Virus record (IMG/VR): IMGVR_UViG_2681813232_000007
Direction: 5' to 3' (one strand)
Origin: a virus
Lineage: Duplodnaviria > Heunggongvirae > Uroviricota > Caudoviricetes
Length of the DNA: 37,702 nt
The position numbers and the translations under genes were made by a program. Below, piece after piece: positions 15,887 to 37,702 of this stretch (its first letter is position 1; every line of letters begins with the position of its first letter). The notes beneath the pieces are model-generated. The model was not told the DNA's origin and ran no database searches. It saw only the letters and a list, made by a program, of their open reading frames with translations.

Positions 15887-17146
15887 ATGTTTAGATTATC
15901 TAGTGTCAAGATTGAAGGTTTTTGGGGAAGACTAAATGCATCATGTTCATTTAATGAAGATGTAAATATTATTATTGGTCGAAATGGGACCGGTAAAACA
16001 ACCTTTATGAATATTCTTCACTCAGTTCTGGCATTAGAACTCGAATCACTAAATGAGAATAGTTTTGATAATGTAACAATAAAAATAAAAGAAGGAAGCA
16101 AAACTAAAACAATAAAAGTTGTGAGTAAATTTGACATAACTAAAGCTTTGCCTACGTTTGAATATACAATTTCTAGAAAGAAATATATTATCAGATCCTT
16201 TGAAGATCGTAGACTACCTATATATATGAGGAGAAAATATCAGGAAGACGTTGAAAAACTTAAGTTAGAGTTAGATAAATTAGTTGCTTTATCTTCTCTA
16301 TCAGTTTACCGACTTAGAAGCGGTGAAGATTTTGAAATCAGAGACAAATATGGCTCAAAATTAATCAACCCTGTTGATTACCGATTAGAACAATTATTGC
16401 AGAACCTAACAAAATATCAACTTTATTTATCACAAAGAGCTCGTGATGTTTCTGCAATATTACAGAAAGAGGTTCTTGCTTCTATTCTTTATAGTAAAGA
16501 AGATGGTATCGATGACACATTTAACTTTTCTTTTGATAAAGAAAAAGAACGTAGAAATTTAATAGCTGCATATTCTCAGCTTGGAGCTTTTGATAGTGAT
16601 GTCAGAAAGAAGATTAACTTTCACGTTGAATCTATTGCCAAAACATTTGAAGAATTACGACTTGCAGAAAAAAATAACAGAAATATTTTAAATGTAGATT
16701 ACAGATCATTTGAGGCATTACGAAAGACGCAAAGAATTATAAAGATGTCTTTAAAATCCGAGGAGAAAATAAAAAACATATTTCTTCCTATAAATCTATT
16801 TTTAGAAACATTACATGAGTTCATAACCGATAAAAAATTTAATTTTATCTCCGGTGAGCTAGTAATAGAAAACGAGCATGGGCCGATTAGCCATAGTAAT
16901 TTATCGTCTGGTGAAAAACAGCTATTAATTCTTTTTATTGAAACTTTGCTACAGCAAAACAAACCTTTCATCTATCTTACTGATGAACCAGAATTATCGC
17001 TACATATTGCATGGCAACGAAAAATAATACCTGCAATCAAACAACTTAATCCTAATGCGCAAATTATCGCCGCTACGCATTCACCAGAAGTGGCTTCTAA
17101 ATATCGAAATGCAATCTTTGATATGGAGAAATTGGTTCATGGATGA
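15887..17146 (+). CDS. ABC-type ATPase, candidate anti-phage protein (AriA/AbiLi-like)
   Basis: 419 aa; Walker A GRNGTGKTT (residues 31-39), signature-like LSSGEKQ, Walker B-like FIYLTDEPELSLH; AAGGA Shine-Dalgarno upstream; strongly AT-rich compared with flanking phage genes. Confidence 0.7.
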   Translation: MFRLSSVKIEGFWGRLNASCSFNEDVNIIIGRNGTGKTTFMNILHSVLALELESLNENSFDNVTIKIKEGSKTKTIKVVSKFDITKALPTFEYTISRKKYIIRSFEDRRLPIYMRRKYQEDVEKLKLELDKLVALSSLSVYRLRSGEDFEIRDKYGSKLINPVDYRLEQLLQNLTKYQLYLSQRARDVSAILQKEVLASILYSKEDGIDDTFNFSFDKEKERRNLIAAYSQLGAFDSDVRKKINFHVESIAKTFEELRLAEKNNRNILNVDYRSFEALRKTQRIIKMSLKSEEKIKNIFLPINLFLETLHEFITDKKFNFISGELVIENEHGPISHSNLSSGEKQLLILFIETLLQQNKPFIYLTDEPELSLHIAWQRKIIPAIKQLNPNAQIIAATHSPEVASKYRNAIFDMEKLVHG

Positions 17147-17990
17147 TTTCCATTATTCTGCCGAAGCAGAAAATGTAATGAATTTATTTTACCAAGCTGA
17201 AGCCATGGTTTATGTTGAAGGCCCAGATGATATTTGCTTTTGGGAAATCATCTTTAATAAAGCTAGTTCATTAAAGGTTGAAATCAAAGATGTTGGCGGC
17301 TGTGAAGAATTAAAAAAATATATTGATAGAGTTACTGATGAAGATCTTCAAATTATAATTGCATGTGATGCAGACTTCACTACATTTGAAAATGAGGAAA
17401 ACGCTGATAGTCGCATTGTAAAAACTTATGGGCACTCCATCGAAAACACGTTTATTGACAAAACAGGCATATATAAGGCAATAAAAACTCTAGGAAAATT
17501 ACCTCAAAAGATAATGAACGATGTCAACGTCGATTCTTGGACAGAAGACTTTTATACCAAAATGGAACCCCTAATAAAACTTGATATATACAATCATATT
17601 TATAGAAAAGGCATTTCAGTTATTGGTGACAGTGCAGATCGTTTCATGAAATCTAGAAAATCAAATGAAATTTGCGAGCAAAAAATCACGAGTTACAAAA
17701 ACACCATCATTGAAAAATTAGGTGTGGAACCAGATAACATCGATTCATCTTTCAAATCAAAATCGATAGAATACAGAAAGTGGCTTAGAGGTCATTTTCT
17801 TTTTTCTGCAGTACATAGGTACATTAGCACAACTGCAGAAAAAAATGGAAAAAAAGTATCCTTATCATATGAATCATTATATTCCAATTTAATGAATACA
17901 TTTGAATCCAATTTTACCAATACTCATATTGAGTTTAATCATTACCACGAAAAAATTAAAGCCATAAATATGCCACACGAAATGAAATAA
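17139..17990 (+). CDS. DUF4435/TOPRIM-like putative nuclease, candidate anti-phage effector (AriB/AbiLii-like)
   Basis: start set at MDDFHY (ATG at 17139) overlapping the upstream stop as ATGGATGA; conserved acidic motifs YVEGPDD and IIACDADF consistent with a TOPRIM Glu plus DxD; AT-rich. Confidence 0.65.
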   Translation: MDDFHYSAEAENVMNLFYQAEAMVYVEGPDDICFWEIIFNKASSLKVEIKDVGGCEELKKYIDRVTDEDLQIIIACDADFTTFENEENADSRIVKTYGHSIENTFIDKTGIYKAIKTLGKLPQKIMNDVNVDSWTEDFYTKMEPLIKLDIYNHIYRKGISVIGDSADRFMKSRKSNEICEQKITSYKNTIIEKLGVEPDNIDSSFKSKSIEYRKWLRGHFLFSAVHRYISTTAEKNGKKVSLSYESLYSNLMNTFESNFTNTHIEFNHYHEKIKAINMPHEMK

Positions 17991-21914: not shown

Positions 21915-22970
21915 TTATGCTCCGGCTTCTGCGGCGGTGCTGAAGTCGCCAATCTGGATGTTTTCCACCAGTGCTGCGCAGCGGTAGTCCTCAACCACAT
22001 AGGCTTCGTTAACGGATTCAAAGTTTTCAATCCGGTCACGTTTCGGGTTGTCGATAACTGAACGGCGGCGGGTGTCTTCCTGCCAGTAGATGGACAGGTT
22101 ATCCAGACGGGTGATCAGCAGCGCATTCGGCGGGAAGAACGGCGCACGCACGGCCTGCAGGCCACCCATGCGTTTCTGGCTGATGATCATATCGGCAGCC
22201 AGTTTTTCACTGTTTTCCTGCTCTTTGTTGACCAGCGGGAAATACTTATCAGACAACAGTTCACGACCGCAAATCACCACCAGATCGTCATCGTCCTGGT
22301 AGACCACGTCGATAAGCTCATTAACGGCATCCATCACCACGGCGTCCAGGTTGGCATATTCGCCACCTTTACCGACTTTCACCGCGCCCGGTGTGGTTTC
22401 ACCGCCCGTGGTGGTGCTGCCCATGACGTGATCCGGTGCATCCTCACGGATTTTCTGCAGCCAGCCTTTATTCACATCCTGCAGCAGCGGGTTTTCGCTA
22501 CGGTTGGAGGTTTTCGCACGCTTCACGCCGTTAAAGCCGATCATGATGCGGTCCAGTGCCTGACGTTTCACGATGGCGTCACGGATACGCACCTGAAAAT
22601 CCTGAAACTTCGCCCACAGGTCCAGCTTCGCGTAGGTCAGCACCGTGTCAAAGTTGGTCTGCTCGCATTTATATTCCACATCGACCATCAGCGTCGGATC
22701 GACAGGTTCACGCTCTTTCGCGGTGGTATCAGTGGTTCCGGCAATGGTGCTGCCAACTCCCAACCCCAGCAGCTGACCGGACTGCTCAGTCACTGGCGTG
22801 ACGTTAATCAGCGTCAGGAAAGCGGCGGACTGCTGGATCTGGTCTTCCAATGTCTGCTGCACGGACGGCTCTACGGTGAACTTGCTGGACAGTTCTTCAA
22901 CTGCCACACCGTTCAGACGCGCCAGTTGCTGCAGGTAAGCGTTAAAAGCAAAGCGGGTATTCTTCTTCAT
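21915..22970 (-). CDS. N: major capsid protein N
   Basis: 351 aa, extensive resemblance to P2 gpN by recall (FNAYL, KFTVEPSV.QTL, DLVVI.GR.LL.DKYFP.VNKEQ.NSE.LAAD.IISQKR). Confidence 0.92.
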   Translation of the reverse strand: MKKNTRFAFNAYLQQLARLNGVAVEELSSKFTVEPSVQQTLEDQIQQSAAFLTLINVTPVTEQSGQLLGLGVGSTIAGTTDTTAKEREPVDPTLMVDVEYKCEQTNFDTVLTYAKLDLWAKFQDFQVRIRDAIVKRQALDRIMIGFNGVKRAKTSNRSENPLLQDVNKGWLQKIREDAPDHVMGSTTTGGETTPGAVKVGKGGEYANLDAVVMDAVNELIDVVYQDDDDLVVICGRELLSDKYFPLVNKEQENSEKLAADMIISQKRMGGLQAVRAPFFPPNALLITRLDNLSIYWQEDTRRRSVIDNPKRDRIENFESVNEAYVVEDYRCAALVENIQIGDFSTAAEAGA

Positions 22971-26814: not shown

Positions 26815-27969
26815 TCAGCTTATTTGACCTAATAATTCTTCCGCATATTTTTTATCACTATCCATCCGTTGCTGAACAGCATCCCTAAGATGCTCTTTCA
26901 ACTTATCAGGATAATTTTTACATGCATCAATCAATTTTGTTCGTAAAAGCTTAGCACCATTTACAATGGTGGCATAAGCTAAAGCATCAGCTAACTCCTT
27001 AACTTTCACATCATCAGTAATGATAGAAGGGATTGAAAAAACGTAATATTTCGCAACATAATTTTGCGTATACCAACTATCATATAACAATCCAATTAAA
27101 GCATCACCAAGATCACCTCTTCTTTTAAATTTGCTACCAAATGTATTACCCCATGTTCCTATAGCTCCTTTGGTCGCATCAGAATAGAAATCCAAATATC
27201 CTTTTTTGCACTCTTCGATGATTATATTTTCCATTCTAATTAAAACATCATCAGGAAGATTTCTCCATGCGCTCGGCTTAATTATTCTAAATACATTAGC
27301 AAACTCAACATTATTGCTAGCCTTGCGTAACTCATCACCTAGCAACCGCATTGCGGCTTTTTCTTCCTCTCCTGAAAAGCGTTGGTTTATTGCTTTGAAT
27401 ATAGAATCAATTTCCTTGGTTGGCCTTTCATTAAAGCGAGAAATTAAACTTTGGAAAAAATCTAGTAGTTTTTTTTCTGGAATTTGTGATATTAAAGCTT
27501 CTGCATAATCAGAATTATTTACAAAGTGAACCTCATAAATTCTTTCAAGAATTGCTGTGTAATCGAACTCAGCAACATCTCTTTTTAAATACTTAATAAA
27601 AGTATCCAACATGATCAATATTCTCATGCAGGAATCTTCTGTATCAGGGAAATTGTCATGTGTCCTTGGATTTCTTATACACTGATAGTAGCCTCTTAAT
27701 AGTGCTTCAAATCCGCGCTGTTCGTCCTGCTCTGATACAGATTGAAGACTATTAATTTGGATTCTAGGTGATTGTCCACCCAAAACAGTACCAACAAGCT
27801 GAGCCCCATCCCCTTCACATTGCCCTTTTTCACGCAGCAAAGTTGTTAGATATTTGGTTCCTGCAAGTATTGCATCCGAAAATTGGTTGTTTTCCAGCCT
27901 ATTACCAATCGCTTCAACTAATTCCGCATCGAAATTATTTGTATTAAAGTTATTTTTTACAAACATCAC
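26815..27969 (-). CDS. orphan cargo protein with N-terminal HEPN-like RNxxxH motif, candidate abortive-infection RNase
   Basis: 384 aa, AT-rich; motif IRNPRTH (R99-H104; codons 27658-27675); GGGGAG Shine-Dalgarno upstream of the ATG; sits between the portal gene and the cos-like site. Confidence 0.6.
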   Translation of the reverse strand: MMFVKNNFNTNNFDAELVEAIGNRLENNQFSDAILAGTKYLTTLLREKGQCEGDGAQLVGTVLGGQSPRIQINSLQSVSEQDEQRGFEALLRGYYQCIRNPRTHDNFPDTEDSCMRILIMLDTFIKYLKRDVAEFDYTAILERIYEVHFVNNSDYAEALISQIPEKKLLDFFQSLISRFNERPTKEIDSIFKAINQRFSGEEEKAAMRLLGDELRKASNNVEFANVFRIIKPSAWRNLPDDVLIRMENIIIEECKKGYLDFYSDATKGAIGTWGNTFGSKFKRRGDLGDALIGLLYDSWYTQNYVAKYYVFSIPSIITDDVKVKELADALAYATIVNGAKLLRTKLIDACKNYPDKLKEHLRDAVQQRMDSDKKYAEELLGQIS

Positions 27970-33956: not shown

Positions 33957-34178
33957 CTAGTTGAATACAACATTGCAATCAGTAAGTGCATCAACGGTAA
34001 GAGCAGCAAGGTTGATCATTACCTTTTCTCTTTTCTTGTCTTTACGAAGACGATGCCGAGGAATGCGACCATCCGCCAACATATCGTTGATTGTGTCGAT
34101 TGAAAGACCAGTAAGTTCGCTATAACGCTCGATTGTGACGTGTGGCGTATTCAGAGTTATTGAAATGTTAGGGGTCAT
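33957..34178 (-). CDS. apl: Apl/Cox-like excisionase and lytic-switch repressor
   Basis: start set at MTPNISITL (ATG at 34178, AGGAG upstream); 73 aa with HTH; divergent from cI. Confidence 0.7.
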
Positions 34179-34228
34179 GATGCAACATCTCCTATTGGCT
34201 TGTGGTGAGCCTGTAGTAATCGTGACAA

Positions 34229-34244
34229 GTACCCAATTGGGTAC
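34229..34244. promoter_or_regulatory. perfect 16-bp palindrome in the cI/apl switch region, candidate operator
   Basis: GTACCCAATTGGGTAC, 30 bp upstream of the cI start codon. Confidence 0.4.
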
Positions 34245-34273
34245 AAAACTGATACTAGGATCGCAAAAGAGAT

Positions 34274-34870
34274 ATGTCAACATCAAAGTACCCAAGTGAG
34301 ATCAAAATAAATCCCAATAAAGGTGGTAAGGCTGCGATTGAGCGATTAGTCGAAGCCTATGGCTTTACGACACGACAGGCTTTAGCTGATCACTTGGAAG
34401 TATCAAAAAGCACACTAGCGAACAGGTATTTGCGGGATACATTTCCTGCTGACTGGATAATCCAATGTGCTCTTGAAACAGGAACCTCCCTCAAATGGTT
34501 AACTACCGGACAAGGCCTTAAGCAAAGCTCGCTGACAGCAGCTACAGAAGAGCTTGTTAAGTTTCGCCTTGCCGCAGGCAAAATGATTGAAGACGGTTCA
34601 TATGTCTTCGATTCATCATTTCTTCCTGCAAACCTTTCATCACCAATTGTTGTTCAGGATGGACTCGTCACATACATTTGTGATCAAAAATTTTCTGAAG
34701 TACTTGATGGAAACTGGTTAATCAATATCGACGGAACCTATTCCATTCGAAAAATCACAAGGCTTCCTAAAGGAATGATTAAAATTACAACAGCAGAGAA
34801 TAGCTTTGAATGTGCATTTTCTGATATTGAAGTGGTTGCTTGTATAAGAAGTACAATAGTCTCGAATTAA
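34274..34870 (+). CDS. cI: CI immunity repressor (186 CI type)
   Basis: 198 aa; N-terminal HTH and motifs EAYGF, CALETG..L.WL.TG.G shared with 186 CI by recall. Confidence 0.8.
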   Translation: MSTSKYPSEIKINPNKGGKAAIERLVEAYGFTTRQALADHLEVSKSTLANRYLRDTFPADWIIQCALETGTSLKWLTTGQGLKQSSLTAATEELVKFRLAAGKMIEDGSYVFDSSFLPANLSSPIVVQDGLVTYICDQKFSEVLDGNWLINIDGTYSIRKITRLPKGMIKITTAENSFECAFSDIEVVACIRSTIVSN

Positions 34871-34890
34871 TATAGTAAAAGGATTTTAAA

Positions 34891-36567
34891 ATGAATTCAT
34901 TTGCCATCGTTATACTCTTATTAGCATTTCTCGCCCCTGTTCTAGCTGTAATATTATTTAAACAAAGTAAAAAACACAAAGCGGCTATAGATAACCTGAC
35001 AGCTAACAACATAGCCCTTTCTAACCAACTGATTGAAAATCAAGAAAAACTAGCACAGACCGTACGAGAATTATCAGAGCTTGAAGGGCGAGCAGCACCA
35101 TTGTGGCAATACGAAGAATTGCACAGCGCAGTAATGGATGCAGAGAATAAGATAAAAAATGCGGACTCAATAGCCAAGCAAAAAATAGATGAAGCCCAAA
35201 TTAAGGCGGCTAAAACAGTAAACGAAGCAAATTATCAAGCTCAGATGACAATAAGCAACGCTAATAGCGAAGCTATAGCAATCACCAAAGACGCTCGCGA
35301 TGCACGCCTGAAAGCCAAAGAACGTCTTGATAATGCTAATAATAAAGCAAATGAGCTAATCTCAAATGCTAATGACAATGCAGTAAAAATTATTTCTGAT
35401 GCAGAAGAAAGAGCAAAGGAGATTGCTGGTTCAGCATATGAAGCTAAAGAGTTTGCAGAAAAATATGAAGCAGTTGCAAAATCAATGAAAAATAAAATTG
35501 AAGGTTATGGTGATGAATGGATCATCCCTAACCGTAGTGTACTTGATGAGCTGGCAGAAAATTATGAATTTACAGATGCAGGCAAGGAATTACAAAAAGC
35601 CAGAGAGTTAACCAAATCATTAATAAAAACTAATAAAGCTGCTTCGTGTGATTATGTTGAGCAAAACAGGCGTAATACTGCCATAAACTTTGTTTTGGAT
35701 GCCTTCAATGGAAGAGTTGACAGTATTTTATCAAAAGTCAAACACAACAATTTTGGAAAACTTTCCCAAGAAATAAAAGATGCATTTCAACTAGTAAATT
35801 ACAATGGCTCTGCCTTTAGGTCCGCAAAAATAAGTGACATCTATCTTCAGGCAAGACTCAACGAGCTAAAATGGGGTGTAGCAGTTAATGAAATTATGCT
35901 CGAAGAAAAAGAAGAGCAAAGAAGGATTAAAGAACAGCTTCGTGAAGAGGAAAGAGCTCGTAGAGAATATGAAAAAGCGATAAAAGAAGCTGAAAAAGAA
36001 GAAAAAGCTATTCAGCAAGCTATAAATAAAGCAACGAAAGAACTTATGCTTGCAAATGAAGAACAACGCTTAGCTTTAGAGCAAAAAATAGCTGAACTAC
36101 AGTTAAAATATGAAGAAGCTGAAGCTAAAAATCAACGAGCTATTTCTATGGCTCAACAAACCAGATCAGGCCACGTCTATATCATTAGTAATATTGGTTC
36201 ATTTGGCGAAGATGTATATAAAATTGGAATGACACGCCGCCTTGAACCACTTGATCGTGTTCGTGAACTCGGAGATGCTAGTGTTCCTTTTTCGTTCGAT
36301 GTTCATGCGATGATTTATAGTGATGATGCACCATCATTAGAAAACCATCTGCATAAAGTTTTCAACGAAAAGCAGGTCAATAAAATTAACTCACGAAAAG
36401 AGTTTTTTAACGTAAATTTAAAAGAAATCAAATCAGTTATTGAAGACATGAACATCAACGCCCACTGGACAATGTTTGCAGAGGCGAAAGAATATAGAGA
36501 GTCTCTATCTATTGAGCAGGAGCGCAAAGCAGCCACTTCCGCCAACGATGAACTACATGTTGCTTAG
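34891..36567 (+). CDS. membrane-anchored coiled-coil protein with C-terminal GIY-YIG-like (T5orf172-type) domain; candidate anti-phage cargo
   Basis: 558 aa, AT-rich; N-terminal transmembrane helix (FAIVILLLAFLAPVLAVILF), long Lys/Glu/Ala-rich helical region, C-terminal GHVYIISN...YKIGMTRRLEPLDRVREL; inserted between cI and int. Confidence 0.65.
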   Translation: MNSFAIVILLLAFLAPVLAVILFKQSKKHKAAIDNLTANNIALSNQLIENQEKLAQTVRELSELEGRAAPLWQYEELHSAVMDAENKIKNADSIAKQKIDEAQIKAAKTVNEANYQAQMTISNANSEAIAITKDARDARLKAKERLDNANNKANELISNANDNAVKIISDAEERAKEIAGSAYEAKEFAEKYEAVAKSMKNKIEGYGDEWIIPNRSVLDELAENYEFTDAGKELQKARELTKSLIKTNKAASCDYVEQNRRNTAINFVLDAFNGRVDSILSKVKHNNFGKLSQEIKDAFQLVNYNGSAFRSAKISDIYLQARLNELKWGVAVNEIMLEEKEEQRRIKEQLREEERARREYEKAIKEAEKEEKAIQQAINKATKELMLANEEQRLALEQKIAELQLKYEEAEAKNQRAISMAQQTRSGHVYIISNIGSFGEDVYKIGMTRRLEPLDRVRELGDASVPFSFDVHAMIYSDDAPSLENHLHKVFNEKQVNKINSRKEFFNVNLKEIKSVIEDMNINAHWTMFAEAKEYRESLSIEQERKAATSANDELHVA

Positions 36568-36625
36568 CAATGTATGTTTCATAGTAATCACACATTGATT
36601 ACTGGTTACATATACAGTTAAATTT

Positions 36626-36649
36626 AGCCCTCTGATATGAGGGCTTTTT
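36626..36649 (+). terminator. hairpin plus T-tract immediately upstream of int (terminator and/or RBS-sequestering structure)
   Basis: agccctc-tgatat-gagggct (36626-36645) followed by TTTTT, then the int ATG at 36650; the 3' arm GAGGG doubles as the only Shine-Dalgarno-like element for int. Confidence 0.6.
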
Positions 36650-37702
36650 ATGGCAGTACGAAAACTAACCACAGGGAAATGGCTTTGCGAATGTTACCCC
36701 GCCGGACGAAGTGGGCGTCGTGTGCGTAAACAATTCGCTACCAAAGGCGAAGCACTGGCTTTTGAGCGCCACACGATGGAAGAAACCGAAGCAAAGCCCT
36801 GGCTGGGTGAATCAGTGGATCGTCGAACACTGAAAGACGTGGTTGAGCTATGGTTCAAACTACATGGTAAATCTCTGACAGCTGGGCAGCATGTCTATGA
36901 CAAATTGCTGTTGATGGTTGACGCTCTGGGCAATCCTCTTGCAACCGATCTCACCTCTAAAATGTTTGCCCACTATCGAGATAAACGCCTGACAGGCGAG
37001 ATCTACTTCAGCGAGAAATGGAAGAAAGGAGCAAGCCCGGTCACCATTAACCTGGAGCAAAGCTATCTAAGTAGTGTTTTTAGCGAACTATCCCGTCTGG
37101 GCGAATGGTCGTATCCGAACCCACTGGAGAACATGCGAAAATTCACCATCGCAGAAAAAGAGATGGCATGGCTTACCCATGAGCAGATTGTTGAATTGCT
37201 GGCTGATTGCAAACGTCAGGACCCAATTCTGGCACTGGTAGTTAAGATATGCTTAAGCACAGGCGCACGCTGGCGTGAAGCCGTAAATCTTACCCGCTCA
37301 CAGGTGACCAAATACCGAATTACCTTTGTCAGAACGAAGGGGAAGAAAAACAGAAGCATCCCTATCAGTAAAGAGCTTTACGAAGAGATCATGGCGCTTG
37401 ATGGGTTCAATTTCTTCACAGACTGCTATTTTCAATTTTTATCCGTGATGGAAAAAACGTCTATCGTGCTCCCTCGCGGTCAACTCACACACGTTCTGCG
37501 CCATACGTTTGCGGCGCACTTCATGATGTCGGGTGGAAACATTCTGGCCTTACAAAAAATTCTCGGACACCACGATATAAAAATGACTATGCGTTACGCA
37601 CATCTGGCACCGGATCATCTAGAAACGGCGCTCCGTTTCAATCCTCTGGCAACGCTGCCAAGTGGCGACAAAGTGGCGGCAGCGGTTGGCATTACCCCGT
37701 AA
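36650..37702 (+). CDS. int: tyrosine integrase (P2/186 family)
   Basis: 350 aa; catalytic region with HVLRHTFAAHF and MRYAHL (R..H..R..Y); stop codon is the final triplet of the window. Confidence 0.9.
   Translation: MAVRKLTTGKWLCECYPAGRSGRRVRKQFATKGEALAFERHTMEETEAKPWLGESVDRRTLKDVVELWFKLHGKSLTAGQHVYDKLLLMVDALGNPLATDLTSKMFAHYRDKRLTGEIYFSEKWKKGASPVTINLEQSYLSSVFSELSRLGEWSYPNPLENMRKFTIAEKEMAWLTHEQIVELLADCKRQDPILALVVKICLSTGARWREAVNLTRSQVTKYRITFVRTKGKKNRSIPISKELYEEIMALDGFNFFTDCYFQFLSVMEKTSIVLPRGQLTHVLRHTFAAHFMMSGGNILALQKILGHHDIKMTMRYAHLAPDHLETALRFNPLATLPSGDKVAAAVGITP

Follow-up and report, generated by a model that had tools for sequence, protein, structure and literature searches.

The gene that separates the cI repressor gene from the integrase gene in the phage DNA analysed here (37,702 nucleotides, hereafter the window) very probably encodes an anti-phage nuclease of the SNIPE (PD-lambda-1) family, carried as defence cargo in the cI-int slot of a 186-like (Peduoviridae) prophage. 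Its assignment as a nuclease comes from matches to domain profiles and from its homology with SNIPE. Published work already covers the family, how it acts and the tendency of P2-like prophages to carry defence cargo, and the protein has already been named by annotation pipelines: the newer RefSeq annotation calls a copy with 99.9% DNA identity a 'SNIPE associated domain-containing protein', and proteins identical to the 558-residue product of the window are present in NCBI.

The founding member, PD-lambda-1, emerged from functional screening of E. coli DNA (ECOR26, RCP76574.1, 500 residues; Vassallo 2022, PMC9519451), and was renamed SNIPE and characterised in Nature in 2026 (Saxton 2026, PMC13190303). 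The experiments of that study, which used the ECOR26 protein only and not its homologues, describe an inner-membrane protein with a single transmembrane helix and a periplasmic N-terminus (N-out/C-in), whose cytoplasmic DUF4041 domain binds DNA and probably also the phage tape measure protein. SNIPE cuts radiolabelled lambda DNA during injection, and defence is abolished either by the E414A substitution in the GIY-YIG nuclease domain or by deletion of DUF4041 (PMC13190303).

A SNIPE family gene between cI and int

In phage 186 (NC_001317), the stop codon of cI overlaps the start of int at position 22433, so that the two genes abut, and both are annotated in the pL lysogenic operon. In the window, a single, intact open reading frame of 558 codons (34891-36567, + strand) occupies a 1.78-kb AT-rich gap between the cI repressor gene (34274-34870, +; Pfam Phage_CI_repr, 8e-32, and Phage_CI_C, 3.5e-27), which forms the left border of the cargo slot, and the tyrosine integrase gene int (36650-37702, +; Pfam Int_N, 3e-32, and Phage_integrase, 7e-22), which forms its right flank. 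All three genes are on the + strand, and the GC content of the cI-int interval is 0.33-0.39, compared with 0.43-0.55 in the flanks. An earlier, sequence-only reading of this DNA had recognised an extra AT-rich gene of 1.7 kb, on the same strand, between two genes that are adjacent in 186, and the comparison with NC_001317 and the gene coordinates bear this out.

The spacer between cI and the 558-codon gene is 20 nt long and contains an AGGA Shine-Dalgarno sequence, read from the sequence at 34880-34883 (+), 7 nt before the ATG. A terminator scan found no terminator-like site in this spacer, and a consensus promoter scan found no sigma-70-like site on the + strand upstream of the gene, promoter-like sites in the region being fewer than in shuffled sequence. 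An equivalent of pL could not be placed by eye in 34100-34273. The geometry of the junction, with its 20-nt gap, its AGGA and the lack of a terminator-like site, suggests that the gene is co-transcribed with cI.

Family membership is indicated by profile and sequence searches. The protein matches the PD-Lambda-1 model of PADLOC (PDLC03976) with E=3.1e-120, residues 106-550 being aligned with positions 36-481 of the 491 in the model, and it matches phrog_1847 in PHROG (E=1e-132), to which no function is assigned. For direct comparison we used as the reference a 500-residue protein from a lambdoid prophage (L002:4984-6486), since it carries all nine of the residues mutated in the SNIPE paper at their published positions. 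BLASTP against this SNIPE sequence gave 51% identity over residues 265-541 of the window protein (E=2e-76) and aligned Glu484 with the catalytic residue E414.

The predicted layout of the protein begins with an N-terminal transmembrane anchor at residues 4-23 (34900-34959, +), where the Kyte-Doolittle average over 19 residues reaches a maximum of 3.16 at residues 4-5, followed by the basic sequence KQSKKHK. The net charge of residues 24-40 is +3, and this basic patch next to the hydrophobic segment fits the positive-inside rule, with the bulk of the protein predicted to be cytoplasmic; as a prediction, the single N-terminal transmembrane helix claimed earlier is therefore upheld. After the anchor come a stalk (approximately residues 24-203), a compact DUF4041 domain (approximately 215-325), a helical hairpin (316-423) and the nuclease domain. 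Within the stalk, residues 85-200 (35143-35490, +) form about ten 11-residue (hendecad) repeats, recognised by a residue identity of 0.276 at a lag of 11, compared with about 0.09 at other lags, and the hydrophobic periodicity of the stalk is 3.6-3.67 rather than 3.5. NCBIfam gave weak matches of the N-terminal part to DivIVA and to V-ATPase subunit E, and Pfam returned nothing at E<=0.001 when the N-terminal 264 residues were searched alone.

The DUF4041 domain (PF13250), which Pfam now names "SNIPE" and which appears on homologues under the precomputed label 'PF13250:SNIPE', is matched at residues 267-322 (35689-35856, +; 3e-12) with a score of 46.6 bits, compared with a gathering cut-off of 27. 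The GIY-YIG-type nuclease domain occupies residues 427-520 (36169-36450, +) and is matched by two Pfam families, T5orf172 at residues 427-520 (3e-17) and MUG113 at residues 443-520 (4e-20), its motif pieces GHVYIISN and YKIGMTRR starting at residues 427 and 443, respectively. The domain search proposed in the sequence-only reading thus returned DUF4041 and T5orf172/GIY-YIG above their cut-offs. In an alignment of 61 homologues, Y430, K444, G446, R449, R450, E484, H488 and N497 are invariant; the codon for Glu484, the predicted catalytic residue, lies at 36340-36342. That reading had also described one Lys/Glu-rich helical region of some 400 residues; the stalk and the hairpin are indeed predicted to be helical, but they are not continuous, DUF4041 lying between them, and the composition is rich in Ala, Glu, Lys and Asn rather than in Lys and Glu alone.

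Structure modelling of residues 201-558 with AF2, using the 61 homologues, gave a mean pLDDT of 78.7, with block means of 76-95 for residues 231-330. In this model DUF4041 is compact, the helical hairpin is long, and residues 427-494 form a beta-beta-alpha-beta-alpha core. The full-length model, made with 24 close homologues, was poor (mean pLDDT of 53.9) and its Foldseek matches were meaningless. When all PDB chains were searched by sequence, the protein alone matched none and the family profile matched only one, at chance level (E=3.1), so that neither search found a solved relative.

The phage records ON470620 and OM835953 in GenBank carry the label 'chromosome segregation ATPase', which would make the protein SMC-like, and weak coiled-coil matches to the SMC model could be taken in the same sense. 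A pattern search, however, found neither a Walker A nor a Walker B motif, and the score for the SMC model, 15.7 bits, is far below its cut-off of 729. We consider the label to be wrong and an SMC-like ATPase scarcely conceivable.

Proposed mechanism and determinants of specificity

By homology to the characterised SNIPE, we infer how the window protein is expressed, how it is oriented in the membrane, how it acts and on which phages. [quoted passage not shown] When a siphovirus injects its genome, the DUF4041 domain would bind the complex of the tape measure protein together with the entering DNA, the GIY-YIG domain (Glu484) would then cut this DNA, and the cell would survive. The hendecad stalk, which is unlike the stalk of the reference, is probably an adaptor that determines which entry machinery the protein monitors. 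Published work shows that plasmid transformation and prophage induction still proceed in the presence of SNIPE, and that within the BASEL collection SNIPE is active on siphoviruses only, no myovirus being affected (PMC13190303). Since the carrier of the window gene is a myovirus and SNIPE spares DNA that is already inside the cell, the prophage would be unharmed, and its host would be protected from competing siphoviruses at no cost to the prophage.

A different outcome would be expected if the protein were an abortive-infection toxin, in which infection frees the nuclease from the membrane, so that it destroys the host DNA and kills the cell. Removal of the transmembrane helix makes SNIPE toxic, with cleavage of the chromosome (PMC13190303), and the earlier idea of a 'sensor plus effector' protein would fit such a toxin. 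Cells that contain full-length SNIPE, however, survive and continue to grow even when the multiplicity of infection is high, with no lysis seen (PMC13190303), and the window protein has the same architecture, which makes a suicidal mode of action very unlikely. The suggestion of an exclusion or defence protein is accordingly retained in one respect, because the protein belongs to the PD-Lambda-1 family, whose founding member defends its host, and revised in another, because this family provides direct defence by cutting DNA rather than abortive suicide by a sensor and an effector (PMC13190303). The membrane anchor is typical of SNIPE proteins but not obligatory, since 34% of the family has no transmembrane helix (PMC13190303).

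The specificity of the window protein may differ from that of the reference. [quoted passage not shown] Residues 1-264 of the window protein, which hold the repeats, gave no BLASTP alignment to SNIPE, and the association with ManYZ and the phage range of the reference are therefore not transferable to the window protein. In addition, Lys327 of the window protein stands at the position of SNIPE W257, and Ser292 at that of E223; the W257R substitution in SNIPE improves binding to the tape measure protein of Bas14 (PMC13190303).

These same differences in the adaptor and on the DUF4041 surface would be expected of a SNIPE homologue that is inactive, or that targets phages other than the siphoviruses of the reference. 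Two PD-Lambda-1 homologues from S. thermophilus share 98.5% identity and yet have completely different activity (PMC12322248), so the presence of a gene does not prove its function. Against this, the gene is intact and occurs in many enterobacterial genera, the homologues among the listed matches are 82-100% identical and nearly all are 558 residues long, and the nuclease motifs are invariant. Such intactness and strong conservation argue for selection on function, and we regard inactivity or a different target range as unlikely.

The cI-int slot and its inheritance

To place the gene in context, we surveyed 77 loci from species-representative genomes that encode relatives of the window integrase. 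Where the integrase is approximately 49-56% identical to that of the window and cI was detected next to it, cI mostly abuts int, as in 186, with gaps of 0.5-3.3 kb at several loci; where the integrase is approximately 64-100% identical and cI was detected, the gaps range from 411 to 3311 bp. The cargo of the 32 loci with cI-int gaps of more than 300 bp has a GC content of 0.30-0.41, lies on the same strand in all but one ORF, and comprises about 29 protein clusters. No other cargo is as frequent as the SNIPE variant, which is present at 7 of the 32 loci. Other cargo proteins match the PADLOC models PDC-S20 (KAP/PifA-like NTPases), PDC-M11A, PDC-M18A, AbiU and HEC-01, and by our tally strong PADLOC matches to these five or to SNIPE are found at 16 of the 32 loci. 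The slot between cI and int in prophages of this integrase type is a defence hotspot with varied and often defence-related cargo. Its position is not new, as it belongs to a known kind of prophage defence hotspot: a cI-int hotspot appears in the account of K139-like, P2-related Vibrio prophages (Rousset 2022, PMC9122126), and an 'integrase to primase' interval is named as a minor hotspot of P2-like prophages (PMC13586616).

Full-length copies of the 558-residue variant are present in 165 of 5426 complete E. coli genomes (~3%), and one copy is split by an ISVsa5 element. Among the matches listed, identical or near-identical proteins occur in E. coli, and copies that are 82-87% identical occur in Citrobacter, Salmonella, Klebsiella, Enterobacter, Raoultella and other genera. 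All copies inspected are flanked by cI and int in a 186-like prophage, always starting 20 nt after cI and ending 82-83 nt before int. The window type of int is found in 1118-1135 complete E. coli genomes; the window allele of cI is found in 163-171, compared with the 165 that have the SNIPE variant. Strain MS8345 (NZ_CP025401) has both a cI and an int that are 100% identical to those of the window, and the gene of strain N61 shows 99.9% DNA identity. In the species survey, cI is 82-96% identical to that of the window at all seven SNIPE loci, and at most 56% identical at all others. The cI allele and the SNIPE variant are therefore inherited together.

This pattern of inheritance bears on a further explanation, in which the gene is a selfish, free-standing homing endonuclease of the GIY-YIG type that has inserted itself between two conserved phage genes. 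An AT-rich insert with a GIY-YIG-type domain at such a place would be expected of a mobile gene of this kind. The insert, however, is co-inherited with one cI allele rather than spread across alleles, and some 29 unrelated families of cargo, many with links to defence, are found in the slot that it occupies. The protein itself also departs from the expected small, soluble enzyme, since it is 558 residues long and has a transmembrane anchor, an N-terminal part of 400 residues and a DUF4041 domain, and Pfam reported no DNA-binding module of the homing type. Taken together, these features make a homing endonuclease most improbable.

The right border of the slot is formed by a promoter-like and hairpin element immediately before int (36590-36649, +), recognised by a terminator-like call and by its conservation in 22 int loci. 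In the window, a promoter-like sequence, TTGATT-17 nt-TTAAAT, lies at 36595-36623, and a hairpin at 36626-36645 contains the Shine-Dalgarno sequence of int in its 3' arm and is followed by TTTT. The 60 nt before int are kept in the 22 int loci whatever the cargo, and include a promoter-like TTGAC(C)-17 nt-TTAAAT whose spacer contains an ACTG/CAGT inverted repeat. Across the int loci the arms of the hairpin co-vary and a T run usually follows, and the hairpin is absent at loci where cI abuts int. The element could both terminate transcription of cI and cargo and provide int with a regulated start of its own. In the passages of the two reports that describe the hotspots (PMC9122126, PMC13586616), there is no mention of a promoter-like and hairpin border or of the co-inheritance of cI and cargo.

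These observations raise the tentative possibility, which we consider rather less than even, that the 558-residue variant represents a distinct specificity class of SNIPE within a co-inherited 'immunity plus defence' cassette. In such a class, the ATP-synthase-b-like hendecad stalk and an altered DUF4041 surface, with Lys at the W257 position, might steer the protein away from ManYZ and the lambda tape measure protein and towards other entry machinery. In such a cassette, cI and SNIPE might be expressed from the lysogenic promoter on a transcript ended by the conserved hairpin, which would insulate int and leave it with its own promoter and a masked ribosome-binding site. Whichever specificity it has, the SNIPE variant is a common natural allele at one fixed prophage position, found also in many Klebsiella, Citrobacter, Salmonella and Enterobacter genomes, and it could serve to study how phage range depends on the N-terminal adaptor and on the DUF4041 surface. 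In the species that carry it, the variant may also influence the host range of phage therapy with respect to siphoviruses.

Comparison with known defence systems

The window protein and SNIPE share the same order of parts, from the transmembrane helix through the helical stalk, DUF4041 and the helical hairpin to the GIY-YIG/T5orf172 nuclease. In both the window protein and the reference SNIPE, the most hydrophobic 19-residue stretch falls at residues 4-24 and is followed by Lys/Arg, and both genes are carried by prophages. The prophages differ, since the copy that matches the reference is in a lambdoid prophage beside ren and replication genes rather than in the cI-int slot of a P2/186-like prophage. 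The window protein is 58 residues longer than SNIPE, its numbering is offset by about +70 from DUF4041 onward, and its stalk, which belongs to the variable adaptor region, is about 70 residues longer than that of the reference.

The hotspot in K139-like prophages shows the same pattern of cargo between cI and int, but its description concerns the Vibrionaceae (PMC9122126), whereas the 32 loci found here are enterobacterial; the published interval for Enterobacteria, as given in PMC13586616, is the coarse one from integrase to primase.

A distant relative, PD-Lambda-1 EU01 of S. thermophilus, is detected by the same defence-system model as the window protein and has anti-phage activity, but it is chromosomal and belongs to a Gram-positive host (PMC12322248), to which it gives resistance against Brussowvirus, Vansinderenvirus and Piorkowskivirus phages (PMC12322248). 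Zorya and Kiwa, like SNIPE, defend from the inner membrane and are considered to target DNA upon injection or shortly afterwards, but they consist of unrelated proteins encoded by several genes, whereas in SNIPE one polypeptide includes the nuclease.

Joint inheritance of cI and SNIPE

The cI allele of this prophage and the SNIPE variant, a 558-residue member of the PD-Lambda-1 family, are inherited together (window 34274-36567). Of the complete genomes of E. coli, 163-171 contain the cI allele and 165 the SNIPE variant, compared with 1118-1135 for the neighbouring int type. In other species, cI of the window type (82-96% identity) occurs at all of the SNIPE-bearing loci and at no other locus.

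Individual records of the gene and of its genomic slot were also noted. In E. coli DETEC-S560 (NZ_CP116094.1, 1542550-1545564), an otherwise identical SNIPE gene is cut in two by an IS4-like ISVsa5 element and represents a natural knockout. Two GenBank phage records, OM835953.1 and ON470620.1, label the SNIPE homologue as a 'chromosome segregation ATPase'. The first of these, Klebsiella phage KP12 clone KP12_3, is filed under Vequintavirinae, yet the clone is P2/186-like. Since the sequence of ON470620 continues into the host genes rcdA, ybjJ and mdfA, this record comprises a prophage region with its chromosomal flank. The shortest filled interval between cI and int is 411 bp and contains only a 63-residue ORF (L007:6621-6812 and L008:1378-1569), which has a signal peptide-like N-terminus and several cysteine residues.

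A conserved element upstream of int

Directly upstream of int lies a conserved element of approximately 60 nt (window 36590-36649), which is retained in 22 of the 22 related int loci examined, independently of the cargo that precedes it, and is absent from loci where cI abuts int, such as that of phage 186. Its 5′ part resembles a promoter (TTGATT-17 nt-TTAAAT), contains the inverted repeat ACTG/CAGT and is followed by a hairpin (36626-36645), the arms of which co-vary and which contains the int Shine-Dalgarno sequence, and then by a T run. The element may serve as a terminator of the transcript spanning cI and the cargo, as an int promoter combined with a translational control element, or as both.

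Further defence cargo of the prophage

A PARIS-like two-gene system is located amid the tail and baseplate genes (window 15887-17990, + strand). The first gene encodes an AriA-like AAA_21/AAA_15 ATPase of 419 residues (PADLOC AriA, 6e-40) and the second an AriB-like DUF4435 protein of 283 residues (AriB, 2e-24). The pair is a second defence cargo of the prophage that carries the SNIPE variant. A 383-residue protein encoded on the minus strand (window 26815-27966) has an N-terminal Hypoth_Ymh domain (Pfam, 3e-23) and PADLOC matches to PD-Lambda-3_B (2e-14) and Aga_HEPN (2e-9). Its gene is flanked by the portal gene and a replication gene, the position of the classical P2 hotspot, and is therefore a candidate for a third defence cargo.
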